A model generated the notes under the pieces. The model saw only the letters and a program-made list of their open reading frames with translations. It searched no databases and was not told the DNA's origin. A stretch of 16,046 nt of DNA from Candidatus Thorarchaeota archaeon (lineage in GTDB: Archaea; Asgardarchaeota; Thorarchaeia; Thorarchaeales; Thorarchaeaceae). Shown piece after piece: positions 3,144-16,046 of the stretch. A program made the position numbers and the translations under genes. The stretch is taken from assembly GCA_003345595.1 (NCBI GenBank), contig PRDI01000021.1, positions 1 through 16,046 on the forward strand, in the 5' to 3' direction. The first letter of the stretch is position 1, and every line of letters begins with the position of its first letter.

Positions 3144-4280
3144 ATGAACGGTTCCGGTTCTTCGAGCGGCGGTTCATCAGCAGAACCAAGTGCAAAGACA
3201 ACGCTGACTGGCCCGACCAAGGGCCTGAGCACTCTTGATAAATTCCTCCCAGTGTGGATCATCCTAGCCATGGTGTTGGGGTTGCTGCTGGGGTATGTCG
3301 TTCCGGGCATGGCAGAGGCACTCGATTTCTGGAGGATCGACACGGTTTCGCTCCCCATTGCGATAGGACTTCTCTGGATGATGTATCCCGTGCTGGCCAA
3401 AGTGAAGTATGAAGAACTAGGCAAGCTGAAACGCCAAAAGAAGATGTTCGGAGTATCGCTCTTTCTCAACTGGCTGATCGGTCCGTTTCTCATGTTTGCT
3501 CTCGCATGGTTGTTCCTCGCAGACCTGCCTGACTATCGTACCGGGATTATACTTGTGGGACTCGCTCGATGTATAGCCATGGTTCTGATATGGAACATGA
3601 TGGCAGGAGGATGCAGCGAATCTTGTGCAGTGTTAGTGGCACTCAACTCCATCTTTCAGATAGTGATGTACAGTCCAGAGGCATGGTTCTTCGTCACGTA
3701 CCTGCCGTCCGTGGTATCTCCCGGAGCAGGTTCTGTGGTCGAGGTGTCAATACTGGACATTGCAAAGAGCGTTATCATCTTCTTGGGCATTCCATTGGCT
3801 GCAGGTGTGATCACAAGGTTCAGTCTGATTAGACGTCGCTCGAAAGAGTGGTATGACAAGGATTTCGCGCCAAGGCTTGGACCCTATGCCCTCATTGGTC
3901 TCCTATTCACGATCGTTGTGATGTTCTCCTTGAAGGGTGATGTTATCCTCTCGCTGCCCTTTGACGTTGTGAGAATCGCAGTTCCGCTCCTGTGCTACTT
4001 CATTCTCATGTTCTTCGTTTCCTTTGCGATATCCTACGCCTTCAAGTTCGGATATGACAAGAACGTGACAATATCCTTCACAGCAGCGAGCAACAACTTC
4101 GAGCTTGCCATTGCTGTGGCAATCGGAGTGTTTGGAATTCACTCTGGACAGGCACTTGCGGCGGTAGTAGGACCGCTAATAGAAGTGCCAGTGCTTGTTG
4201 GCCTAGTCTATGTCGCGCTGTGGCTAGGTCGGAAGCTCTACGCTCGTAGGCCAGGTGACCCAATCCAATGCGAATCATAG
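3144..4280 (+). CDS. acr3: ACR3-family arsenite efflux transporter
   Basis: About 10 hydrophobic segments. Hallmark motifs MMYPVL, NWLIGP, GLARCIAMVLIWN, SNNFELAIAVAI, VGPLIEVPVL. Confidence 0.96.
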   Translation: MNGSGSSSGGSSAEPSAKTTLTGPTKGLSTLDKFLPVWIILAMVLGLLLGYVVPGMAEALDFWRIDTVSLPIAIGLLWMMYPVLAKVKYEELGKLKRQKKMFGVSLFLNWLIGPFLMFALAWLFLADLPDYRTGIILVGLARCIAMVLIWNMMAGGCSESCAVLVALNSIFQIVMYSPEAWFFVTYLPSVVSPGAGSVVEVSILDIAKSVIIFLGIPLAAGVITRFSLIRRRSKEWYDKDFAPRLGPYALIGLLFTIVVMFSLKGDVILSLPFDVVRIAVPLLCYFILMFFVSFAISYAFKFGYDKNVTISFTAASNNFELAIAVAIGVFGIHSGQALAAVVGPLIEVPVLVGLVYVALWLGRKLYARRPGDPIQCES

Positions 4281-4342
4281 GATCTGATACCGGGCTCAAC
4301 GAGAGAGCCGGCGGTCTGTGCGTAACAGAGGTGCTATAGAAC

Positions 4343-4717
4343 GTGAATCCTGAGAAACCCAGATTCATAATGTGTGTGTGTACAGGCAAGTGTCCAGGTT
4401 TTGCTAAGATGGACATATGGGACTTCATCAACACTGTCCGAATGACTCTCCCTGTGAACCATGCAGTCATTCACCCTCAGCTCTGCGAGCAAGATGGAGA
4501 CCGATACCTCGAGGACACACTCAGGCCAGAACAAAAGGTCATCGTCGCTGGATGCGCCCCAGCGATGCAGGTCAAGCTGTTTCGTGACGCGTTTCAGAGA
4601 AAAGGTATGGACGTGAAGAGGGATCTTGTGCCAATCGACATCCGTGACATGACAACTGAGCAGGCCTTGGAGAAAGTCAAGGCGGAACTCAAGAGGCTTG
4701 GATACGATGTCGAGTGA
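4343..4717 (+). CDS. Small Cys-rich protein resembling the N-terminal Fe-S domain of heterodisulfide reductase subunit A
   Basis: GTG start after GAGGTG. Pattern CVC...C, HPQLC, VIVAGCAP...KLFR, IDIRD parallels the HdrA N-terminal pattern (CxC, LC, VVAACSP..FR, NIRE). No FAD-binding part. Confidence 0.65.
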   Translation: MNPEKPRFIMCVCTGKCPGFAKMDIWDFINTVRMTLPVNHAVIHPQLCEQDGDRYLEDTLRPEQKVIVAGCAPAMQVKLFRDAFQRKGMDVKRDLVPIDIRDMTTEQALEKVKAELKRLGYDVE

Positions 4718-5027
4718 ATCCGGAAACGGAACCACCTTCATGGGCGTCGCACGCGAGAAGATCTCTTGGTGGCCAAGCATAGACACTGAGAGGTGTGATG
4801 GCTGTAGCGGGGAATACGACTGCCTCAAATTCTGCCCGCATCAGGTCTACAGGCCCTTGACCAGCCCCGCGAAGGTAGCTGTCGAAAACCGATACAACTG
4901 CGTTGTGTTCTGTCAAGCCTGCAGGAAGATGTGCCCGAAAGACGCCATCTCATTTCCGCAAAAGGGAGAGATTCTGAAGGTGATTAAAGAGGAACTGAAA
5001 AAGCGAGGTGAGCACAGCGGTCCGTAA
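4707..5027 (+). CDS. 2x[4Fe-4S] ferredoxin-family protein, ~106 aa
   Basis: IDTERCDGCSGEYDCLKFCP and NCVVFCQACRKMCPKDAISF motifs. ATG 4707 follows AAGAGG and overlaps the end of the upstream gene. Confidence 0.88.
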   Translation: MSSESGNGTTFMGVAREKISWWPSIDTERCDGCSGEYDCLKFCPHQVYRPLTSPAKVAVENRYNCVVFCQACRKMCPKDAISFPQKGEILKVIKEELKKRGEHSGP

Positions 5028-5856
5028 GTACATCCTACCATGTGCCGGATACGACCGACCAGGTGGCAACACAAGCAGGAGGGCTGCCGAGAAACTCGCA
5101 TCTCATCACGGTGATGTGACCATCGGCAGCATGGGCGCGTTGTTTACACAGCGGCCTGGAGAGATGCGGGAGCTGAGGTCTTCACGTGTGATCTGCATCG
5201 ATGGATGTGGAACGAAGTGCGCCTCTGTACTCGCCGATGCGAGAGGTGTCAAAGACGCTTTGATTATCTCGATACCTGAGGTGTCCTCCGCCGTCAAAGG
5301 TGATCAGGACAAAGCTCAATCAGTGGTCGATGCCGTAGAAGCGGTCTTCGTCCGTGAGGCCGCTGGCGAAAAGCAAACTCAAGCACCTGAAGAAGAAGCG
5401 GGTCCAGAGCTGCTTGAAGAAACGTTCGACAAGTTCACCCTTCGTGTCAAGGGGGACCTTAGATACTCTGACAATGATTTCTGGGTGAGTGTCGAAAACG
5501 GGAATGTTCGCGTGGGTGTATCTGACTTTCTCCAGCAGATGATGTCCGATGTGTACTACGTCCGACTGGCCGAAGTGGGCACGCACATACAGATGTTTGA
5601 CGAAGCTGGAGCAATGGAGTCTACAAAGACATTGCTGGAGATTATAGTCCCTGTGTCGGGGACTATTGTGGAGCGTAACAGCAAGCTAGAAGACAGCCCC
5701 GAGTTGATCAACGAGGATCCGTACGGAAGAGGATGGTTGTACGTTGTCAATCCTGACGACATCACCGAATTAGAGTTGCTGAAGAATGCATCCGAATACA
5801 TGACACATGCCCTATCAAAAGCAAAGAAGGAGATTGGAAAGAAGGTGAAGGACTAG
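5008..5856 (+). CDS. Fusion of a DGC (putative metal-binding) domain and a glycine-cleavage H-like lipoyl-carrier domain
   Basis: N-half: PCAG...IDGCGTKCA (DGC pattern). Acidic linker EKQTQAPEEEAGPE. C-half: WV...VRVGVSDF.Q, MESTKT (lipoyl Lys207, codon 5626-5628), PVSGTIVERN, LEDSPELINEDPYGRGWL. Continuous reading frame. Confidence 0.88.
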   Translation: MSTAVRKYILPCAGYDRPGGNTSRRAAEKLASHHGDVTIGSMGALFTQRPGEMRELRSSRVICIDGCGTKCASVLADARGVKDALIISIPEVSSAVKGDQDKAQSVVDAVEAVFVREAAGEKQTQAPEEEAGPELLEETFDKFTLRVKGDLRYSDNDFWVSVENGNVRVGVSDFLQQMMSDVYYVRLAEVGTHIQMFDEAGAMESTKTLLEIIVPVSGTIVERNSKLEDSPELINEDPYGRGWLYVVNPDDITELELLKNASEYMTHALSKAKKEIGKKVKD

Positions 5857-5859
5857 ACG

Positions 5860-6246
5860 ATGAAGAAAGTCGTTGTTCCTTGCAGTGGGATTGGAAAAGC
5901 GTTTGGAGCAGTATCAAGGGAAACCACACATCTATTGACTCAGGGAATGCATTCTACCGACTACCGAACGGTATGCCTTCCTCTCCTCATGACCGACGAT
6001 ACGGAAGCCAGGCAAGTCATCGAGGAGTCGGAAGTCTACGTAGTCGATGGCTGCCCGATGAAATGCGCGTCTGTCGTGGTCAAACATGCTGGGGGCAAGC
6101 CGGTGATGGAGATCATCGTACCGAAAGTCTTGGCTGTCAATAAGGACCACAGACCTGCCACTGTGCTTGACATCGGTGAGGGAGGACGCCTCCTCTGTGA
6201 GGACATCGTTCGCATAATCATTGAACGTGGAGGCAAGGATGAATGA
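5860..6246 (+). CDS. DGC-domain (putative zinc/metal-binding) protein
   Basis: VVPCSGIG...TVCLP...VVDGCPMKCA, the four-Cys DGC pattern. Confidence 0.85.
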   Translation: MKKVVVPCSGIGKAFGAVSRETTHLLTQGMHSTDYRTVCLPLLMTDDTEARQVIEESEVYVVDGCPMKCASVVVKHAGGKPVMEIIVPKVLAVNKDHRPATVLDIGEGGRLLCEDIVRIIIERGGKDE

Positions 6247-6647
6247 GCTTTACGCCTAAGGTCGGCATTGTATCGTGCAGCGGCGAGGACTGCTTTGGCG
6301 GTGGCGTTTCCCGCATGGCCACTCTAGAAGTGCTTCACCGACTAAGGCCGACTGACACCGTGACAATATGCCTTCCCCTGTTTCTCGCAGGAAGTGGAGG
6401 GGAGCGTGAGTTCGCCAAGAGCTTTCCGACTATCACAGTTGATGGTTGTGCAAAGATGTGCGCCGCGAAAGGAACCGCCAAATACAGCAGCGAACCGGCT
6501 GTCAGAATCAATGTCAGCGACTACATGGACGACCCCTGCTCCAAGGTTGACGGAGTGGCAAAAGCAGGTGAAGTCTCGGTTGTTGTGCGGCGAGTTGCAA
6601 GCGATATCGCTTCGCATGTCGACCGACTGAGATCCCAGTGGAGATGA
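6243..6647 (+). CDS. DGC-domain (putative zinc/metal-binding) protein
   Basis: IVSCSGEDC...TICLP...TVDGCAKMCA. ATGA overlap with the upstream gene. Confidence 0.85.
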   Translation: MSFTPKVGIVSCSGEDCFGGGVSRMATLEVLHRLRPTDTVTICLPLFLAGSGGEREFAKSFPTITVDGCAKMCAAKGTAKYSSEPAVRINVSDYMDDPCSKVDGVAKAGEVSVVVRRVASDIASHVDRLRSQWR

Positions 6648-6922
6648 AAAACATGCCAAGAATAGTGAAGGTCAGAGTGTTTCTGCCGGTTGGAGTCTGC
6701 GGCTGCAGTCAAACCGACTTCATTGCCCGCACATACCAGGCAGTGCGGAAGCATCCAGACATTGTCGACTATGGGGAAGACTCGGCCGGAAGTGAGGCTG
6801 CCAAGAGAGCAGGTGTTACCTACAGAGGGATACTCATAGGTCGCCGCTTGCTTCAAGGCAATCCCACATCAGACCAGATTGAAGAGGCGATTCTTGCCGA
6901 GGCCAACAGGACAGAGGACTAG
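6644..6922 (+). CDS. Small thioredoxin-fold / ArsD-like protein with a CGC motif
   Basis: ATGA overlap at 6644 (alternative start ATG 6653). VRVFLPVGVCGC and ILIG...GNPTSDQIEEAI loosely resemble ArsD (GVCG; GxYPT) and small thioredoxin-like proteins of ars operons. Confidence 0.55.
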   Translation: MKNMPRIVKVRVFLPVGVCGCSQTDFIARTYQAVRKHPDIVDYGEDSAGSEAAKRAGVTYRGILIGRRLLQGNPTSDQIEEAILAEANRTED

Positions 6923-6934
6923 GAGAGAGACCTA

Positions 6935-7231
6935 ATGAGCGCTGATAGAGAGATGGAGTGGAGGGTCCAGTTTCACAGAGCTCTGAGCAATCCTGTTCGA
7001 CTCAGGATTGTAGAGTTCTTGGCTGATGGAGAGCAATGTCAGTGCAACATCTTTCCGAAGATAGGTCTCTCCCAGTCTACTGTTTCGGCCTATCTCACCC
7101 AACTTGTGAGGGCAGGAGTCCTGGGAGTGAGGCGTGACGGGACAAGAAAGCTATACAGTCTCAGCGACCGAAAAGTCAAGAGGATGATTGATGATGCCCG
7201 AGCAATTGCCCATTACAGGATGACATCTTAA
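6935..7231 (+). CDS. arsR: ArsR/SmtB-family transcriptional repressor
   Basis: FHRALSNPVRLRIVEFL, GEQCQCNI (equivalent of the As(III)-binding ELCVCDL box), LSQSTVSAYL...LVRAG, RRDG...YSL winged HTH. Confidence 0.92.
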   Translation: MSADREMEWRVQFHRALSNPVRLRIVEFLADGEQCQCNIFPKIGLSQSTVSAYLTQLVRAGVLGVRRDGTRKLYSLSDRKVKRMIDDARAIAHYRMTS

Positions 7232-7328
7232 GAAGGGAGCCGAAGACCTCTTGGGCTTGAACTGACAAGTGACTATGCGGCTTAGCTTTCCAAAGAAACT
7301 TTCGGCGGAAATTCGGTGGCGTGCTAGG

Positions 7329-8084
7329 ATGAATGGACAGGAATGGCGTATTCTCATCTCTTGTACAGACGACGCCGCATTGAACTTGGCTATCGATGAG
7401 TCGCTGATCAGGAATTTGGTGAAGCGTGGAGCCCCGAGCACCATACGTGTCTGGCAGAACCGACCCTCCATCATCATAGGCCGTTCGCAGGATGCACGTG
7501 CAGAAGTGAACATTGATGTGTGCCGAAGACTGGGCATACCAGTTATTCGACGTTTCTCAGGAGGGGGCACCGTATACACTGACAAAGGCTGCTACAACTA
7601 TACTGTTGTCACTCCAACTCAGGAGATTCGCGGCCCACGAACACTTCAAGCCATGCACGGATTCATCTGCTCTGCAATAATGAATGTAATCTCTCGCTTC
7701 GGCTCCACCCCGTTGCTCATTCCCCCTTCAAGCATTTTCGTGCTAGGACGGAAGGTTTCCGGTTCCGCTCAATACCTCCTGCACGATTGTCTACTCCAGC
7801 ACGGCACTCTGCTGGTTGACTCGAATCTTGGGGTATTGCGGTCAGTTCTTTCACGAAACGGTCGAATGGCTGCTCTTTTGCACTCTGTTCCGAGCACGCC
7901 AGCGCCTGTCGCAAATCTTGCTGAGCTGATAGGGCGGCATCCGAGTCGAGGAGAAGTCTATGACGCCATGATTCATGAACTGACGTCGTTGTTTGGGCAA
8001 CCTTGCAGGCGAGGCTCACTATCGAGCGCAGAAGATGAGATGGCTCGCCGCTTGCTCAGGAGCGACCACTCTGCATCAAGCTGA
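7329..8084 (+). CDS. lplA: Lipoate-protein ligase family protein (catalytic domain only), ~251 aa
   Basis: NLAIDESL, WQNRPSIIIGRSQ, RRFSGGGTVYTD, GRKVSGSAQ (catalytic Lys), QHGTLL. Start probably ATG 7329 (MNGQEWRILIS); the ORF extends upstream to 7269. Confidence 0.88.
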   Translation: MNGQEWRILISCTDDAALNLAIDESLIRNLVKRGAPSTIRVWQNRPSIIIGRSQDARAEVNIDVCRRLGIPVIRRFSGGGTVYTDKGCYNYTVVTPTQEIRGPRTLQAMHGFICSAIMNVISRFGSTPLLIPPSSIFVLGRKVSGSAQYLLHDCLLQHGTLLVDSNLGVLRSVLSRNGRMAALLHSVPSTPAPVANLAELIGRHPSRGEVYDAMIHELTSLFGQPCRRGSLSSAEDEMARRLLRSDHSASS

Positions 8085-8253
8085 CAGCAAGTCTATCGAT
8101 GGCTACGCTCTAAGCCCGACTCCGTCTGAGGAACGCTAAATACTGTCCCTGAGCCTAATAGAAACCGATTGGCGAAACGCGCGAGGTCGTTCTTCCGCCG
8201 CTAGTACTGTGACCCCGGCGAATAGCGTGTCAGATGTATATGGAGGACAGTGC

Positions 8254-11200
8254 ATGAACAAATCCTCAATCCATTGCAGTCATGTGCCGAACGTCGGTCT
8301 GGGATACAAACCCGTTGCAGCTCTCCTCAGGGTTGCTTTGCTCGCAATCGCGGCACTACTGATATTGATGCCGGTTTCGGGGCCGGTCACGTCCTCACCA
8401 GACATCGTGAGTGAGCCCGTTCTTGTGAACGAAACATTCTCCGAGGCATCGAACTTCATCAGGATGAGCCTTCCTTATCCTGTCAAATCAATCGCTGTGG
8501 GTACAACATCACAGGGGTCTGGTATCGCCTACGTGCACGGGGATCTTCTCAGGTTCAAGAACCCTGTTAGCTTGGCTGATGATTCGGTGTTCATTGGCAC
8601 GGAAACTGTGCTACATCGAACTCTAACCAGCGCGGACATGGATGGTGATGGTCACTCTGAGTTTCTAATAATGAAGTTCGGCCTGCTGCCTGCTTCTTGC
8701 CTAGTGGTCGACTTCGATAACCATTCTTCTAAGGAATTCAGTTGCCCGGTGGCTGACCCGATTGAGATTCTCACAGGGGATTTCGATGGGAATGGCGTGA
8801 CTGACTTCGCAGTCTACAATGTGGGTAGTCTTGTTATCATGAACATGACTGATGGCAGTCTAATGCTGAGCTACAACTTCCTTGGCGACGTGGTCCGGGC
8901 ATGTGTGGGCAATTTCACATTAAACCCGGGTGACGAGATAGCAGTCCTGTACAACGCCGTATTCGGTCTAGCTGTCATGACTTTCAGTGGCCTTGGACCC
9001 ATCGGATCCGACTCTATGGGCCTAGTTGTTGGTTGTGACATTGCCACATTCCATTATGGTGCCGGGTTCGATGATATCGCAGTCACCTTTGTCGATGCTA
9101 CCGGCACCGGCGATCCGAGTTACCTGAAAACATACTACGGGGATCTGACAGAGATATACACAGTAGGCAATCCTAGTTCAACGGGGGCTGCCTTTGTCAA
9201 GACGGGTTACTTCAATGGTGACTCACAGGAGGACTTGGCCGTCTTGTCCAGGACAAGGGCGCTTGCATGGTTCGCAGACGGAAATGATGGGTCAACAGTG
9301 AGAACCTCTGTTGAGGAGTACTATGGAGCTAACTGGAGAGCATTCGCCACTGCGATACTCGACTCTGACAACTACACTGATGTCGCAGTTGAAGGGCCTC
9401 GCAGTCAGCTCTCACTGATAAGAGGAGTCAATGGTGAAACAGGATATGAGGAACCAAGGTCACCCGGGCCGTTCGCGCAGGTCTTGACGTATGACATTGA
9501 CAGCGATGGCAGAAGCGACATCGTGGCTCTTACCGACCAGATCACTATTCTGCTAAGCGATATTCAGGCCCCATCAGTCAGTCTCGAACCTCTCTATCCT
9601 GCCCATCCTACATTCTATGATAGCTACGTCAAAATTGAGTTAACGGCTACAGACGAATTGGAGGTCAGAGGTGCAATTATCTACATCAAACCCGCAGGCG
9701 CCATTCTGACCATGACTTATCAGGCGCACGAGATGGTCAAAGCACCAAACGGAAGGTACCTATTCATCATGGCAGGTCTTCAACCAAGCGATTTCGATTA
9801 CTACATAGAGGTGACAGATCCTTACCTGAATACCTACTCCTACGGTAACGAATCAAACCCTAACACCCTTACTGTGGAGGGCCATTTCGCTTGGGGGCAC
9901 TTCTTCAATACCACAATAGAGCAGGGCCAGACGCATGCGCTAGCTTTGGGAAACAATTCGGCAGGAGAACAGCTACTACTAGCGATGACGCTGGAGCCTA
10001 CACTGGGCACAGCTACTCTGCGAGTCTTCAGTACACAGGGTACAGAAGTCACACAGGCAGAGATTCTCAGCTCGTCACGGGACTTCAAGTTCGAAGTCTA
10101 CTCGGGTATGCTTGATGCAGACAACATTCTGGATCCGGTGGTAATAGGATACAATGCAACGCACACTAGGCTCTGGGTTCTCCATGGAAACAATATGACC
10201 TTCTGGAGGAGCGACATGCAGTCGGTTCCGTCTACTACGATGAACAACGGCTTGCTGGTATTCGACGACGACGAGGACCAGACGGACGAGATTCATTACG
10301 TGGGGACCAATGTAACAGCGTATTTCCTCATGAGGGCTGATGACGGCTTCTCCTCATGGGTCAATGCTACTCTTCCTGGCAATTCCTCCATCGTTGGAGC
10401 AGCTTGTGCCTCAATCTACGCTCTTCGCCCCCAGATAGGAGTACTCAGGGGTGACAAGAAGCTGGACATCTACCAAGCGTACAATGTGACTTGGTTGAGA
10501 ACCTTGGATTACTCTTCACCGGGGTCTACTCCGAATGATCTTCCCATGATGATTACGACATACCACAATTCAAGCCGTCCAACAGACCAATTCCTGACAG
10601 TCTATGGGGGATGGGTGCTTGACACACCTGTGACATACATGTGCCTCGTCGGCAGTGAAACATCGACTGTGGGGGACGATTCTTCCCACACAATCTTGGG
10701 ACGCCATTTGAGTATGGTTGCACTCTACGACATGGATACTGATTATACAGATGAGCTACTGTTCTTCGACAACGTCGGCAATGTTTCTTTGTTTGACTTC
10801 TCCTATGCCGAGATCAGGCGGTGGACTGTCTTCGTGAGCGAAGCCGGGCCTCTGAGTAGTGCCTTACTGGATTACGATGGCGATGGTTCGGACGAGTTCC
10901 TGATATCGACATCGGACGACAAGCTCACTGCTATTGGACTTGGCGGTGTTCAGGACTATCAGGCCGCCGCAGGCATGTTGTTCAACATGATCAACATCGG
11001 CAATGTCGACCCAGGTTTGGGTGAAGATCTCGCAGCATTTCCTATTCTGAGGGCTAGAAGTACTCTGGGAGCAGTAAGGAACATAGAACTCTTCTACGTC
11101 CTAGAGGTCGGCTTTGGGCTTGAGTCCAGCGTCATCCTCCAAGGCACGAACCTTTGGGCGAACACCACTGTCCTGAACGTTTTCCACGAGCCAGTATCCG

Positions 11201-13863
11201 ACGCCTTTGTGTCATTGACCGCACAGTACAGGTATGGTGCTGGTATTTCGGAACAGAGCTTGGGGTCCATCTACGACAACTCCTCGCATCGATACTCTTC
11301 AATCATCTCGCCCAACTGGCCGATTGGCATGGTCAACATGTCCCTCGCAATCAGCCATGAATACTATGACTCATACTCTGCCAGCTTTGTCAATGCCTTG
11401 AAAGTGGTGAGCCCCTTGACCGTTTCCCTATTCGCCGACTCACAGGTTCAACAAGGTGAGGATCTGCCGGTGAACGCCTCGGTTACAGATTCTCTCGGAG
11501 GAAGAGTCACAGATGCGGAAGTCAACGTGACCCTGGATGGCATTATGTATCCGGCGTACTACAACGAAGAGTTCTACCATGTCATACTGACAAACATCAC
11601 TCTGGCGCCGGGAAACCACAATCTTGCTGCAAGTGCAGACCATCCGTACTCTGTTGGAATTGCAAACAGGGCTCGAACCTTCTCTGTGTTCGCGTCAGCA
11701 CTCATCATCGTTAGGAATTCACCATCATTAGTAGAGCAACACTCATCCTTCGCCATTGAGTTGAGCATCGCAGACCTCTACGGACACCCCATAGTTGGCG
11801 CAAGTGTAATGATTGATTTTGGCATCCTCAAGATCCCGATGTCGCAAACAGGTCCTGGCTTGTACTTGCTGAATCATACAGCCGATATGCCTGTTGGCAA
11901 CTACACGTGTGAGGTCCAGGTCAATCACCCGTTTATTGAAGCAGGCAGCTTCGATTCTTTCAGCATCGGCGTGATTGGCAATCTCAACCCGGTTGTGCGA
12001 TATGAGGGCTCTGTCGAGCAGGGTTCGTTCTTCAACGTTTCAGTGTTTGTGTACGATGGCTACGGGACTATACCAGCCGGGGCTAACGTCACTATCGAAG
12101 CAGGCGGCTTCATCTATCGCGCCAATTCCTCAGGCAGCGCGGAGTTCAAAGCTACCGTCCTTGCCGACTTCCCAATTGGCCCCAACAGCTTCACTGTCTT
12201 CGTTCAGGCCACATTCGGTCATATGACTTCAGTGTCCTGCGGGATAGAAACTAGAAGTCGTGCCGTGGCAACCGTTCTCACTCCCGTTCTTGGCGGGTCA
12301 TACGTTCAAGGGGACGATGACATAGCATTTGCATTGGATGTGGCCGATAGTCTTGGGAACGCTGTAACACAAGCCTACGTCAGGATTCTCATCAGCGAAA
12401 CCACCTACATGCTGACTGACCATCTCAATGGTACGTACACGGCTATCGTCACAACGTCCGGTTGGGCACCGGGGAACTACAGTTACGTAGTCTTTCTGAC
12501 ACGCGACTTTCTCGACTATACTGATCCCATAGGCGGAAATGTTACAATCCAAGGCAAAATCACGCTTGACATCACTCTTTCAACTTCATCTCCTGAGCAG
12601 AACACGACAGTCACAGTTACAGTGCGTGTTGCTGATTGGTATGCACATTCGATCTCAGGTGCATACGTAACCTTGGAGTTCGGGGGCACAACAAGGGTTG
12701 TTCCTGAAACGTCCACACCTGGCCTCTATGAAATGGAAGTTGACGTCGGATTCATTCCTCATGGTCAACATAACCTTACGCTCTGCGCAGAGCACCTGCT
12801 CTGCAGGCGGGCGAACAGCACACTGTTGTTGCAGGTTACTGTAAAGGCGCCCCAGATTGCCATGAACACACAGACCTTCATGTTTGGGTCCGGCTTGTCA
12901 TTCTTGGTCAGCTTCGTTGGTCTACTGATCTACTTCAGAATCTCGTCGTCACTAGCAGTTGTCGATGTCAGCAGCAAAGCCATGGTGAAAAGCATCCGTA
13001 GGATGGATGTGCTTTACGGGGCCATTGTTGGTCTCGGAGGGCTAACGCTCGTGCATTCCTACGTGTCAGCACAGGCAGGAGATTTCGGGCTGGCGCTGGG
13101 TGAGAGCGTGCTACTGCTCGGTATCTCTGTACTTCTGTACGGGATCTGGCTATACAGAGATGCGAACTACGCGATCATCCAAGCCAAGAAACTCAGCAAG
13201 AAGAGGATGATAGCTGGCCTGTGGCACCTGATATTCGTCCCGCTCGTCATCGCGCAGATATTCGTGTGGGGCGGACGCATCGAATGGTTCCAGTACTGGG
13301 TGCTCGAGTCGACTTTCAACCTGGGATCTGTCGCCATACCTATGATAATGCTGACAATCTTTGCGACCTATGTTTCATCCATAGGCATAGTAGTCGTGAA
13401 CCTGTACAGGGAGATAAGAAACAGCCTAACACGACTTGAACGGATGGCAGGCGCCGGGACTCCCCCCGCAGTCGTCGCGGAGGAACGTCTGCAGCTCGTA
13501 GGGAGGTTGGGGTCTTCAATCCGCATCAAGTTCTTCATGTTCCTCGTGATTCTTGCAGGGACAACAGTCATGACCATGGAATTCCTGAGAAGCTACTCTC
13601 TCGGCGTCATCGTCCTCATGCCAGTGGTGTTCTTGATCTTGATTCCATACGTGTCGTCAAAGATGCTGAAAGGAGCTTCGAGAGTTTCGGGCAAGATGCG
13701 AGAGAGAAGGCCGACTGCTGGCCCTTCACTAACAGAAGTGGCCGACAGTGTCACCGAAGTGTCCGGACGAGTCGAGAAGGAATCGTATGAACCCCCGGAC
13801 AAGGCAGTCTCCGGAACAGACATGGACTGGAAACCGGGCGAAGAATCGGACGAAGAGAAGTAG
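8254..13863 (+). CDS. Large surface glycoprotein: signal/anchor, FG-GAP/VCBS-like propeller regions, Ig-like repeats, C-terminal 7-TM domain, ~1869 aa
   Basis: ATG 8254 follows GGAGG. Hydrophobic N-terminal stretch VALLAIAALLILM. Many DxDxDGxxD/E motifs and six ~95-aa beta-rich repeats. Seven hydrophobic segments at ~12877-13655, then a charged tail. Confidence 0.85.
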   Translation: MNKSSIHCSHVPNVGLGYKPVAALLRVALLAIAALLILMPVSGPVTSSPDIVSEPVLVNETFSEASNFIRMSLPYPVKSIAVGTTSQGSGIAYVHGDLLRFKNPVSLADDSVFIGTETVLHRTLTSADMDGDGHSEFLIMKFGLLPASCLVVDFDNHSSKEFSCPVADPIEILTGDFDGNGVTDFAVYNVGSLVIMNMTDGSLMLSYNFLGDVVRACVGNFTLNPGDEIAVLYNAVFGLAVMTFSGLGPIGSDSMGLVVGCDIATFHYGAGFDDIAVTFVDATGTGDPSYLKTYYGDLTEIYTVGNPSSTGAAFVKTGYFNGDSQEDLAVLSRTRALAWFADGNDGSTVRTSVEEYYGANWRAFATAILDSDNYTDVAVEGPRSQLSLIRGVNGETGYEEPRSPGPFAQVLTYDIDSDGRSDIVALTDQITILLSDIQAPSVSLEPLYPAHPTFYDSYVKIELTATDELEVRGAIIYIKPAGAILTMTYQAHEMVKAPNGRYLFIMAGLQPSDFDYYIEVTDPYLNTYSYGNESNPNTLTVEGHFAWGHFFNTTIEQGQTHALALGNNSAGEQLLLAMTLEPTLGTATLRVFSTQGTEVTQAEILSSSRDFKFEVYSGMLDADNILDPVVIGYNATHTRLWVLHGNNMTFWRSDMQSVPSTTMNNGLLVFDDDEDQTDEIHYVGTNVTAYFLMRADDGFSSWVNATLPGNSSIVGAACASIYALRPQIGVLRGDKKLDIYQAYNVTWLRTLDYSSPGSTPNDLPMMITTYHNSSRPTDQFLTVYGGWVLDTPVTYMCLVGSETSTVGDDSSHTILGRHLSMVALYDMDTDYTDELLFFDNVGNVSLFDFSYAEIRRWTVFVSEAGPLSSALLDYDGDGSDEFLISTSDDKLTAIGLGGVQDYQAAAGMLFNMINIGNVDPGLGEDLAAFPILRARSTLGAVRNIELFYVLEVGFGLESSVILQGTNLWANTTVLNVFHEPVSDAFVSLTAQYRYGAGISEQSLGSIYDNSSHRYSSIISPNWPIGMVNMSLAISHEYYDSYSASFVNALKVVSPLTVSLFADSQVQQGEDLPVNASVTDSLGGRVTDAEVNVTLDGIMYPAYYNEEFYHVILTNITLAPGNHNLAASADHPYSVGIANRARTFSVFASALIIVRNSPSLVEQHSSFAIELSIADLYGHPIVGASVMIDFGILKIPMSQTGPGLYLLNHTADMPVGNYTCEVQVNHPFIEAGSFDSFSIGVIGNLNPVVRYEGSVEQGSFFNVSVFVYDGYGTIPAGANVTIEAGGFIYRANSSGSAEFKATVLADFPIGPNSFTVFVQATFGHMTSVSCGIETRSRAVATVLTPVLGGSYVQGDDDIAFALDVADSLGNAVTQAYVRILISETTYMLTDHLNGTYTAIVTTSGWAPGNYSYVVFLTRDFLDYTDPIGGNVTIQGKITLDITLSTSSPEQNTTVTVTVRVADWYAHSISGAYVTLEFGGTTRVVPETSTPGLYEMEVDVGFIPHGQHNLTLCAEHLLCRRANSTLLLQVTVKAPQIAMNTQTFMFGSGLSFLVSFVGLLIYFRISSSLAVVDVSSKAMVKSIRRMDVLYGAIVGLGGLTLVHSYVSAQAGDFGLALGESVLLLGISVLLYGIWLYRDANYAIIQAKKLSKKRMIAGLWHLIFVPLVIAQIFVWGGRIEWFQYWVLESTFNLGSVAIPMIMLTIFATYVSSIGIVVVNLYREIRNSLTRLERMAGAGTPPAVVAEERLQLVGRLGSSIRIKFFMFLVILAGTTVMTMEFLRSYSLGVIVLMPVVFLILIPYVSSKMLKGASRVSGKMRERRPTAGPSLTEVADSVTEVSGRVEKESYEPPDKAVSGTDMDWKPGEESDEEK
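8620..11040 (+). repeat. FG-GAP/VCBS-like Ca-binding repeats (protein level), in two groups
   Basis: Group 1: DMDGDGHSE, DFDGNGVTD, NFTLNPGDE, YFNGDSQED, LDSDNYTD, DIDSDGRSD. Group 2: LDADNILD, DDDEDQTDE, DMDTDYTDE, DYDGDGSDE, NVDPGLGED. An Ig-like segment (~9559-9880) separates the groups. Confidence 0.75.
11100..12850 (+). repeat. Six tandem Ig-like (Big-1-like) repeats (protein level)
   Basis: Motif xQG...V(T/A)DxxGxxVxxAxV recurs at 11170, 11482, 11767, 12049, 12340 and 12628 (spacing 282-312 nt). Confidence 0.75.
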
Positions 13864-13923
13864 ACGACTCGACTGGCACTCCTGCAGCCCCGTGCCAAGC
13901 ATGGCATTTCTTCTACCGAGCAG

Positions 13924-13930
13924 TTAATAT
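13924..13930 (+). promoter_or_regulatory. Possible TATA box for a leaderless transcript
   Basis: TTAATAT about 27-30 nt upstream of GTG/ATG 13954/13957, with no SD visible. Confidence 0.35.
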
Positions 13931-13956
13931 CTGGTCTATCGTCTAGAAACCTCGTG

Positions 13957-16046
13957 ATGCCCCGGCCGGCTCTTGCTCTGGTGCTGTCTTGTCTTATTCT
14001 TCTGCCCTTCGGTCAGTTACCGACGTTCTCTGAAACCGAAGCAGAACGACAGATTGCCTTGGCTCCTGCAGACATAGTCCGGGATTGGACAATCCATATC
14101 GTGACAGTGGGCTACAGACATGACCTGATCAACTGGCCGACACTTCTCGCAGGTCTGCCGACTCAAAGGGACATCCCGTTTGGCAGCCAGACCATCATCT
14201 ACAATATCGGATATCAACTCTCTTTCGCAAACGACTCGTACCTCGAAGACGTCCGGGGAATCGTAATGTCCAACTCAGTAAATGGTTCTGAAACCGGCAC
14301 AGGGTTGGACGAGTCGAATCTCCTTTATCAGAAGGAGAATCCCGATGAGCCTCAATGTATCTTCCGCCCTAGGGCCGGGAGATGCATAGATGCTTATATT
14401 GTTGAAGACTGGCTCATCGCAAACCCCGCAGTCACTCCTCCTGCATTGGGCTATGTTCTGTACATGCTAAACTTCTCAGATCTCGACACGCCCGGACATG
14501 GCATTGAGCACTGGTACGACGCTCATCCAGTAGATACGGACAGCGGCCAGAAACAGGATTGGTTCAGACTCGAGTGGGATAACGCGCAGAATCCGAATGT
14601 CACTCTAGAGTATGCTGGCTTTGGAGGAAGGGGAAACATCTACGTCCTTGACCCTTCAGCCGATCAGTGGTATCTTCGCTGGGCTAGGATATGGTGGAGC
14701 GACCCGCCGTATGAGAATGAGTATGAACATTGCACCATGGACCTAGAGGACAAGGTGCAGTCTGTCGACCTGAGTACCTCCGCGGGCAGGGCATCTCTCA
14801 ACACGTACCTAGGCAACTATCTCTATGACCCAATCGCATATCTTATGATGCCCGGGCAGCACGCACCCGCCGCCTACGTCAACTCGGGACTGCTAAGGGT
14901 GCTTGTCTTCTGTATGGACGTGGCAGACGGCATTCCTGTTGAGAGCCTGACATGGATTACAAATGACGCAGTGCAAAGGGCGCACCTCAAGGAGCTCCTA
15001 CCGTTCATCCCGTGGCAGACAGAGATCGACTATCTCGATATCAATGACTTCCCCGTCTGGAAGACCCTGTTCTCGACTTACTCACAGGTCATAGATGGAA
15101 AGGTGATTGCCGATGGTGGCCCCATGTTTGACGCAATATATGAGCAGATGAGATGGCAGTATGTAGATCCGAGCGACCCAGACGTGAATGTGTTCGGCGT
15201 CGTTTTTGTGAAGAAGAACATGGAAATGCAAGTGTACGGCAGGACCTACACCGGTCTCGGGGGAGGTGGTCAGACGGTCGTGTGGAAAAGCTGGGAACGC
15301 TACTATCGTCCAGACAATGTCACCCCGAAAAGCGGGGTTTCCTCAACACAGCTCCACGAAACAATGCATGCAATGGGACTTGGTCACACATGGGACTACT
15401 ATCACTATGTGGCTGACTTCAGCTACAGTCCTCTGGGCTACTTCGGTTCTCACAACGGCACGTCAAGATTCGATCAGAACTGGGTGCAGAGCACATATCT
15501 CGACCAGATGGAGTTGGACCTGAGAAACTACTTCAGGTATTGTCTGAACCAATGTGCTTCGAGCACTCGCCCCGAAACCGCACTAGCAGAAACGAAGACC
15601 ATCGTGAGTCTCGATGAGGCCGTGGCCCTCTACGACCGAATGGACTGGCAGGGATGCTTCAGGAAACTGAGTGCCGCGCACGATTGGATAAGGAGGATGC
15701 TCTATTCGAGCGTGGATGACGAGGCACCCGTAGTCAGACATTGGGGAACAGTCCCAGAACCGCTCAACTTCTCAGCGTTTCTTGTTTGGGCTCAGGTCGA
15801 TGATGATTTCGCTGGTGTTGAGAACGTGACCGTACACGCTTTGGTCAATGGCATCTCAGAGCATGTGTTCGAGTGCGCATTTGATGGCGGCAACTGGACC
15901 GCAACACTCCTGGGCTTCGAAGACTCAGTCTCACTAGAGGTGTGGGTGGATGCATGGGACTGGGGAATGAACAGAGCCGAAACCCCACGGGTCACCTACA
16001 CCAGAGAAACAATGGAGGATTCCCTGAGGGGTGCTATCCTACTTGG
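13957..16046 (+). CDS. Secreted/membrane-anchored metzincin-type zinc metalloprotease with a C-terminal Ig-like domain (partial, >=696 aa)
   Basis: Not in ORF track. Manual translation is open from ATG 13957 to the window end. Signal-like MPRPALALVLSCLILLPFG, HETMHAMGLGH (HExxHxxGxxH, 15355-15387), Ig-like DDEAP...AWDWGMN, and it ends entering a hydrophobic stretch (GAILL). Confidence 0.85.
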   Translation, partial: MPRPALALVLSCLILLPFGQLPTFSETEAERQIALAPADIVRDWTIHIVTVGYRHDLINWPTLLAGLPTQRDIPFGSQTIIYNIGYQLSFANDSYLEDVRGIVMSNSVNGSETGTGLDESNLLYQKENPDEPQCIFRPRAGRCIDAYIVEDWLIANPAVTPPALGYVLYMLNFSDLDTPGHGIEHWYDAHPVDTDSGQKQDWFRLEWDNAQNPNVTLEYAGFGGRGNIYVLDPSADQWYLRWARIWWSDPPYENEYEHCTMDLEDKVQSVDLSTSAGRASLNTYLGNYLYDPIAYLMMPGQHAPAAYVNSGLLRVLVFCMDVADGIPVESLTWITNDAVQRAHLKELLPFIPWQTEIDYLDINDFPVWKTLFSTYSQVIDGKVIADGGPMFDAIYEQMRWQYVDPSDPDVNVFGVVFVKKNMEMQVYGRTYTGLGGGGQTVVWKSWERYYRPDNVTPKSGVSSTQLHETMHAMGLGHTWDYYHYVADFSYSPLGYFGSHNGTSRFDQNWVQSTYLDQMELDLRNYFRYCLNQCASSTRPETALAETKTIVSLDEAVALYDRMDWQGCFRKLSAAHDWIRRMLYSSVDDEAPVVRHWGTVPEPLNFSAFLVWAQVDDDFAGVENVTVHALVNGISEHVFECAFDGGNWTATLLGFEDSVSLEVWVDAWDWGMNRAETPRVTYTRETMEDSLRGAILL

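Follow-up and report, generated by a model that had tools for sequence, protein, structure and literature searches.

A giant surface protein of a Thorarchaeota-type archaeon with a predicted stalk helix joined to an orphan six-helix membrane core

The window analysed here is the whole of a 16,046-nt contig (C21) from a Thorarchaeota-type genome with a size of 2.7 Mb and 83% completeness. The list of open reading frames (ORFs) and their translations showed that the largest gene of the window is the ORF at 8209–13863 of the forward (+) strand, and the giant Asgard cell-surface protein encoded by it is examined here. Counted from the ATG at position 8254 (8254–13863), the product has 1,869 amino acids (aa); this is the start of the identical database protein P0003 (1,869 aa) and the one adopted in the original prediction made for this locus, while an alternative GTG start lies at 8209. 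Residues are numbered below from this GTG (P0001 numbering, residue 1 at nt 8209), and all features of the gene are given by their positions in the window on the forward strand. In comparison with the closest relative, the ratio of nonsynonymous to synonymous substitution rates (dN/dS) was 0.17 for the ectodomain, 0.12 for the transmembrane (TM) module, and 0.25 for the tail. Since these values fall in the range of 0.12–0.25, the gene is taken to be real and under purifying selection. The predicted protein consists of a large N-terminal ectodomain and seven C-terminal hydrophobic segments, the first of which appears to be the stalk helix of the ectodomain, while the remaining six appear to form a separate membrane core of no known family.

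Hydropathy analysis located the seven C-terminal hydrophobic segments at residues 1557–1577, 1601–1620, 1629–1649, 1667–1689, 1711–1733, 1775–1794, and 1800–1818. An AlphaFold2 (AF2) model of residues 1545–1840, built on an alignment of 56 homologous sequences, agreed with this assignment and contained seven long helices, with a predicted local distance difference test (pLDDT) score of 89.3 and a predicted template modelling (pTM) score of 0.82. The pLDDT was 75–85 in TM1 and 92–98 in the six-helix core. The distribution of lysine and arginine residues in the loops, 18 in the inferred inside loops 1, 3, and 5 versus 2 in the outside ones, points to an N-out/C-in topology. Therefore, the number and positions of the helices, as well as the orientation and the basic character of loops 1, 3, and 5 originally predicted for this protein, were upheld.

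TM1 (12877–12939), predicted to cross the membrane from outside to inside as a stalk helix, was defined by hydropathy, helix 10–38 of the model, conservation, and the split loci described below; its motif S1568-x2-G1571-x3-Y1575 is kept within the Thor subfamily. The six-helix core TM2–TM7 (12997–13662), predicted to be N-in/C-in, is the best-conserved part of the protein and represents an orphan family. The only outside loop of any size is extracellular loop 2 between TM4 and TM5 (13276–13338), which carries an EWF...G...P motif and is modelled as a short helix and a beta-hairpin with strands 158–161 and 164–167 in model numbering. On the opposite side, the cytoplasmic loop between TM5 and TM6 (13408–13530) is, as predicted earlier, the longest one, with 41 aa and 8 lysine and arginine residues. 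In the model it forms a helical hairpin by which TM5 and TM6 are prolonged into the cytoplasm (model helices 168–204 and 209–245), and M1746, T1751-P1752, E1759, and the SIRIK motif are conserved in it. The cytoplasmic tail (13663–13863, 66 aa) is basic near the membrane and then acidic, in agreement with the earlier description, with 15 aspartate and glutamate residues. About 46 of its residues lie past the conserved module, the DxDWKP motif is common only to the two closest relatives, and no match to Pfam or NCBIfam was found in it. Likewise, no enzymatic output domain was detected by Pfam and NCBIfam searches in the whole protein, as had been expected from inspection of its sequence.

A two-gene form of the protein was found in three Lokiarchaeia-type loci from different samples (L036, L037, and L051). 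Of the two genes, the first encodes a signal peptide, an ectodomain of about 1,300 aa, a single TM helix, and a tail of basic character; it is complete in L036 and L051 and truncated by the contig end in L037. The second gene (318–391 aa) encodes TM2–TM7 followed by a double zinc ribbon. The stop codon of the first gene overlaps the start of the second one, within the sequence ATGA in L036 and L037 and by 11 nt in L051. The split is real and has been kept, since the three cores share just 49–58% identity pairwise and the two genes line up colinearly with fused relatives. Distant members of the family align from TM2 on. Altogether, these comparisons indicate that TM1 is the stalk helix of the ectodomain and that the conserved unit is the predicted N-in/C-in six-helix core TM2–TM7; judging from the gene fusion and fission, the two products of the split form presumably associate. 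Thus, of the seven-helix bundle previously regarded as one unit, the seven helices are present, but TM1 is separable and the TM2–TM7 core stands apart in the split loci. Two further loci bear on the gene structure of the family. In L052 (Loki CR_4, GCA_001940655.1, positions about 6000–7000), a family member is broken by runs of N and could be scored neither as split nor as fused; its annotated 318-aa "core" gene may reflect faulty assembly instead of a genuine split. L038 is ambiguous.

Comparison with 43 orthologues revealed an identity of 47% in the TM module, with a peak of 58–59%, versus 28% in the ectodomain. The suggestion that the membrane anchor of this protein goes beyond the needs of a simple adhesin is borne out by its polytopic structure and better conservation. 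Across the 56 sequences, F1778 and P1805 are invariant and look structural, while Y1603, D1651, H1673, W1693, F1694, P1711, Y1733, and K1774 are conserved in at least 80%. The conserved positions include a ring of polar residues at the cytoplasmic boundary (Y1603, R1650-D1651, H1673, Y1733-E1735, and R1772-K1774) and another in extracellular loop 2 (W1693, F1694, G1706, and P1711). H1673, conserved at 80%, is the only well-conserved ionisable residue within the membrane, and S1724 is conserved at 79%. The list of conserved residues contains no cysteine and reveals no conserved polar lining of the core.

An exhaustive phmmer search of 1.84 billion representative sequences with the TM module yielded 109 matches, almost always located at the C-terminus of proteins of 1,400–2,500 aa, and 120 full-length relatives were found at E ≤ 1e-46. 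All named matches belong to Asgard archaea, namely to the Thor, Sif, Loki/Prometheo, Odin-labelled, and Sigyn lineages. The family, defined by a profile of alignment A1 over TM1–TM7, includes the window gene with an E-value of 2.6e-115, the module being C-terminal on a giant secreted protein. Among 400 Asgard genomes, 95 were matched by this profile, including 17 of the 90 of high quality and 56 of the 85 from the family to which the window's genome belongs. Positive genomes gave 1–4 matches each, and a single copy is present in the genome studied here. No copy was found in the three other species genomes of the same genus (G332, G333, and G334; 85–93% complete), and a metagenome contig (L001) carries a syntenic copy with 87% identity in the TM region; it appears that within one genus the gene is gained or lost, or else poorly assembled.

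The window protein belongs to a class of colinear orthologues of about 1,840–1,900 aa, and its identity to 43 Thorarchaeota orthologues of about 1,840 aa is approximately 32%. A search for the same TM domain on other ectodomains, proposed in the original prediction, was successful: in Loki and Sigyn members the core lies under propeller ectodomains of the BNR/sialidase type in place of FG-GAP. The tails also differ between subfamilies, being absent (0–5 aa), acidic (20–46 aa, as in the window protein), acidic with a helical motif (85–107 aa), or formed by a double zinc ribbon. The conserved helical motif, LTKKELIxLLPxxVKExxGxxELKKLSKxQLEALL, follows the acidic stretch in the paralogues of about 2,500 aa (residues 2396–2500 of P0030, 2407–2490 of P0036, and others) and gave no Pfam match. 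Pfam searches with the split-form ectodomains and with the c4 neighbour returned nothing useful. Full-text literature searches found no description of this family. A 2026 preprint refers to structural clusters from Asgard archaea called "7TM" and "class C GPCR", with no detail tying them to the family described here.

The ectodomain is preceded by an N-terminal hydrophobic segment (residues 36–58; 8314–8382) with a Kyte–Doolittle peak of 2.75 and lysine and arginine residues in front of it, which is predicted to serve as a signal peptide or, if uncleaved, as an anchor at the N-terminus. It is followed by a beta-propeller of the FG-GAP type (8455–9585). Pfam searches identified FG-GAP (31.9 bits at a cut-off of 22.1) and FG-GAP_3 (29.5 bits at a cut-off of 26.9), and calcium-loop motifs are located at residues 143, 191, and 429. 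The AF2 model of residues 65–495 is an all-beta propeller with a pLDDT of 89.4, and a Foldseek search of this model against the PDB returned propellers at E-values of 1e-9 to 1e-7. Integrin alpha5 was among these matches (E 5e-7), ranking 31st behind BBS9, clathrin, and BamB. Pfam, the DxDxDG motifs, the model, and Foldseek thus point alike to an integrin alpha-like FG-GAP propeller with calcium-binding loops.

Residues of approximately 570–1000 (9916–11208) probably form a second propeller of the FG-GAP type, as suggested by DxDxD-type calcium-loop motifs at residues 686, 841, and 888 and by sub-threshold Pfam matches to FG-GAP_3 (E 0.07) and FG-GAP (E 0.16). The region between this propeller and the membrane (residues of approximately 1020–1545; 11266–12843) is likely an immunoglobulin (Ig)-like, beta-sandwich stalk. 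Its Pfam matches, to Big_7, CarboxypepD_reg, Invasin_D3 (E 1e-4), and Big_1 (E 1e-3), are all sub-threshold, Big_1 and Invasin_D3 matches are precomputed for orthologues, and a comparison of the stalk region with itself by BLAST revealed no repeats. The giant propeller/Ig ectodomain predicted earlier is therefore supported by FG-GAP matches above the cut-off and the propeller model, and, for its Ig part, by the sub-threshold matches. Of the 34 N-x-S/T sequons of the protein, 33 are located in the ectodomain and none after TM1, consistent with the previously noted confinement of sequons to the ectodomain. Because this number greatly exceeds the 12.3 ± 3.2 sequons expected for the ectodomain from 500 shuffles, the ectodomain is probably N-glycosylated.

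No known family was recognised in the membrane part of the protein. The TM piece matched none of the Pfam families at E ≤ 1, and Pfam searches with the 56 TM pieces gave scattered matches of one to four members (DUF2178, DUF7313, HlyIII, and others), none of them consistent. NCBIfam yielded nothing for P0001, and a feature search of the ESM Atlas returned no usable match. The best match of a PDB sequence profile search was to the TM5 stretch of the beta1-adrenergic receptor (13.9 bits, E 0.18) and is taken as chance. In structural comparisons, the best Foldseek match of the TM model in the PDB had an E-value of 0.25, and the template modelling scores (TM-scores) in the ESM Atlas fold search did not exceed 0.40. 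Two candidates from these comparisons were rejected: cytochrome b561 aligns over TM2–TM7 with a root-mean-square deviation of about 7 Å, but the module has a single conserved histidine, and the Atlas matches of the Lgt type, with TM-scores of just 0.35–0.40, were not convincing. Rhomboid, exosortase, CPBP, PAP2, and CDF proteins were weighed by their motifs, and none of them was listed as a match by any search.

The seven helices and their orientation had suggested an architecture of the G-protein-coupled receptor (GPCR) type. The helix count and the topology agree with it, while kinship with GPCRs or a GPCR-like bundle received no support from Pfam, the PDB, or Foldseek. GPCR and rhodopsin chains could be aligned with the TM model only at root-mean-square deviations of 10–15 Å, and in the Foldseek search GPCRs had TM-scores of 0.17–0.28 with a deviation of about 16 Å. 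No 7tm family, including the adhesion GPCR profile 7tm_2, was matched by the whole protein at E ≤ 0.01 or by the TM piece at E ≤ 1. Pfam revealed no GAIN or GPS domain before TM1, and residues 1340–1550 gave only the sub-threshold matches to Invasin_D3 and Big_1. For microbial rhodopsins, no Bac_rhodopsin match was obtained, and K1818, at the cytoplasmic end of the helix, is the only lysine near TM7. No 7TMR-DISM_7TM domain (PF07695) was found at E ≤ 0.01 when the complete genome, with the giant gene, was searched in six frames. Membership in the 7TM ion channels (7TMIC, including insect Or/Gr, DUF3537, and PHTF proteins) would require the opposite topology and was ruled out, since the glycosylated ectodomain located N-terminal of TM1 and the lysine and arginine distribution put the C-terminus inside. 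The integrin alpha arrangement of a single-pass TM segment with a hinge and a beta subunit was not found either: the protein has seven TM segments, and no beta-like neighbour is conserved. Altogether, the observations made originally on the sequence are confirmed and their interpretation is partly supported, kinship with GPCRs being very improbable.

Neighbouring ORFs from 24 loci were clustered. Neither a GTPase nor an arrestin-like gene recurred consistently beside the giant gene, so that the linkage to such genes proposed as a check of the receptor interpretation was not found. A small GTPase located about 5 kb from the orthologue in L003 was not counted, since most other loci lack it next to the giant gene and Asgard genomes are rich in small GTPases. 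In a Thorarchaeota subclade of 8 loci (L003, positions 13537–15591, L016–L021, and L025), the gene order is Pyr_redox, the giant gene, a gene for a secreted protein (about 520 aa, with two TM helices and a tail rich in acidic residues), and a CheY-like response regulator, the latter being stand-alone and two genes away from the giant gene. This order persists although one of the 8 giant genes shares just 32% identity with the others. The arrangement of Pyr_redox, the two-TM protein, and the CheY-like regulator is absent at the window's locus and the remaining loci.

Several known systems resemble the window protein in part. Adhesion GPCRs (class B2: latrophilins, CELSR, and ADGRs) also combine a giant adhesion ectodomain with seven helices, a cytoplasmic tail, and the longest intracellular loop between TM5 and TM6. 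However, the Asgard protein has no GAIN/GPS or 7tm_2 match and its model aligns with GPCRs only at deviations of 10–15 Å, TM1 is separable from the six-helix core in its family, and no G-protein or arrestin-like partner is linked to it. Integrin alpha shares the N-terminal FG-GAP propeller with calcium loops, the probable Ig-like stalk, the type-I orientation, and the short cytoplasmic part, but it has a single TM segment with a GFFKR-type hinge in place of a six-helix core with a stalk helix joined to it, whereas the Asgard protein probably has two propellers and no known counterpart of the beta subunit. The 7TMR-DISM proteins (PF07695/PF07696) are prokaryotic and likewise place a sensor region outside the cell, N-terminal of seven TM helices. 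They usually carry kinase, cyclase, or phosphatase outputs, while the Asgard protein lacks both a match to their profile and an output domain. Archaeal giant adhesins and S-layer glycoproteins are similar in their Sec-type N-terminus, numerous sequons, beta-rich repeats, and C-terminal membrane attachment. In these proteins the attachment is a single C-terminal TM segment or PGF-CTERM; in the Asgard protein it is a polytopic module, conserved and patchily distributed, that has a cytoplasmic face. The pairing of a gene for a one-TM type-I glycoprotein with a polytopic neighbour in the split relatives resembles nicastrin–presenilin and 4F2hc–LAT1, which is an analogy only and implies no homology.

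Considering these data, we give roughly even chances to the proposal that the window protein is an accessory Asgard surface adhesin or contact protein on an orphan six-helix base, which presents a conserved cytoplasmic face to a partner. An accessory rather than a core envelope role is suggested by the patchy distribution of the family. The type-I ectodomain of the propeller/Ig type is borne by the single predicted stalk helix TM1, which in the lineage of the window is fused to the core TM2–TM7. The core could act as a working membrane base holding the stalk helix, and its face to the putative cytoplasmic partner would comprise Y1603, R1650-D1651, H1673, Y1733-E1735, R1772-K1774, and the TM5–TM6 hairpin. 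The protein could relay a contact made at the ectodomain into the cell, or it could be attached to structures inside. Higher conservation, the conserved cytoplasmic face with its hairpin, the repeated gain of cytoplasmic modules, and survival as a separate gene suggest that the core is more than an anchor, and most likely it docks or informs something inside the cell.

Several observations weigh against this proposal. The analysis yielded no partner, ligand, or signal, and only the giant gene itself is common to all loci holding an FG-GAP-type family member. The largest subfamily (about 1,840 aa) is tail-less, the only residues invariant in the deep family, F1778 and P1805, look structural, and the structural results are all predictions for a protein known from its sequence.

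Some of these observations would suit a passive anchor, in which the core is a sturdy membrane root for a huge glycoprotein of a cell that lacks a rigid wall, with no signalling or partner binding. The lack of an output domain in the window protein, the tail-less state of the largest subfamily, the lack of a conserved neighbour gene, and a phenylalanine and a proline as the deep invariant residues are all consistent with such a root. However, the highest conservation within the protein (47% vs 28%) would not be expected of a mere root, nor would the retention of charged as well as aromatic residues where the core meets the cytoplasm, or a conserved 41-aa cytoplasmic hairpin. The repeated gain of zinc-ribbon or helical-motif tails and the persistence of the core as a separate gene would be equally unexpected, and we regard this explanation as plausible but rather unlikely.

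The gene pairs of the split loci could also be read as a single-pass glycoprotein and a polytopic subunit of a channel or transporter, the core conducting ions or solutes and possibly being mechanically gated via the tethered ectodomain; heteromeric transporters are built from such pairs. Six TM helices in an N-in/C-in arrangement are a common layout of transporters and channels, and the core fits it. The core has H1673 as the only well-conserved ionisable membrane residue and no conserved polar lining, and no family or fold match rose above noise, which makes a conducting function improbable. The same gene pairs could represent a type-I substrate and a polytopic membrane enzyme of the rhomboid or sortase type. 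Such an enzyme might be a transferase, an intramembrane protease, or sortase-like, and it would modify the stalk protein, lipids, or glycans. The conserved histidine of TM4 and the cluster of aspartate, tyrosine, and lysine at the inner boundary would be compatible with catalysis. Nevertheless, this reading seems quite improbable: no residue of a catalytic type is invariant, H1673 and S1724 reaching 80% and 79%, cysteine is missing from the conserved-residue list, and Pfam found no rhomboid, CPBP, exosortase, Lgt, or PAP2 match, the TM-scores for Lgt-type matches in the Atlas being those given above. Finally, a true relative of GPCRs or rhodopsin-type 7TM proteins diverged past recognition by sequence is hardly credible, since its superficial parallels (seven helices with N-out/C-in topology, a TM5–TM6 loop that exceeds the others in length, YRD at the cytoplasmic end of TM3, the beta-hairpin of extracellular loop 2, the proline of TM7, and the beta1-adrenergic receptor match) are countered by the low Foldseek TM-scores, the lack of any 7tm, GPS, GAIN, or rhodopsin match in Pfam, and the location of TM1 on another gene in relatives, which makes a single ancestral seven-helix bundle a poor fit.

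The proposal of an adhesin with a docking core could be extended, tentatively and with rather low expectation, to an adhesion-receptor system made by Asgard archaea independently of GPCRs and integrins. The stalk helix would transmit contact or tension at the ectodomain to a six-helix transducer, the conserved cytoplasmic side of which would recruit partners within the cell, and the zinc-ribbon and helical-motif tails of the paralogues would extend the cytoplasmic face. If true, this would be a prokaryotic device for outside-in contact sensing in the closest relatives of eukaryotes, and in any case the protein offers a concrete, testable candidate for an Asgard contact or adhesion device. The core adds a membrane-protein family without a Pfam, NCBIfam, or PDB counterpart, in which ectodomains and tails are swapped and the core can be a separate gene. 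The family as a whole represents a conserved giant surface protein with integrin-type propellers, so far found only in Asgard archaea among the named matches. The seven helices below an adhesion ectodomain are in this case no evidence of an archaeal GPCR, which corrects a tempting misreading.

The co-directional gene P0002 begins 90 nt downstream of the giant gene (13954–16044) and is cut by the contig end. It has a signal-like N-terminus and the motif HETMHAMGLGH, of the metzincin-like HExxHxxGxxH type, and no match to Pfam, NCBIfam, or the PDB was found for it. Its full-length homologue in L001 (16141–18435) ends in a TM helix followed by a basic tail, and among the loci compared a gene of this type is present only in this closely related locus. 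On these features, P0002 may be a membrane-anchored metalloprotease able to process surface proteins.

Upstream of the giant gene, at 3144–8084 of the window, lies a cluster of genes for an SBF/ACR3-type transporter, a DGC–GcvH fusion, two DGC proteins, ArsR, and LplA. This arsenic/lipoyl-type cluster adjoins genes for HdrD-like and FAD-oxidase (HdrD/GlcD-like) proteins and is syntenic in L001.

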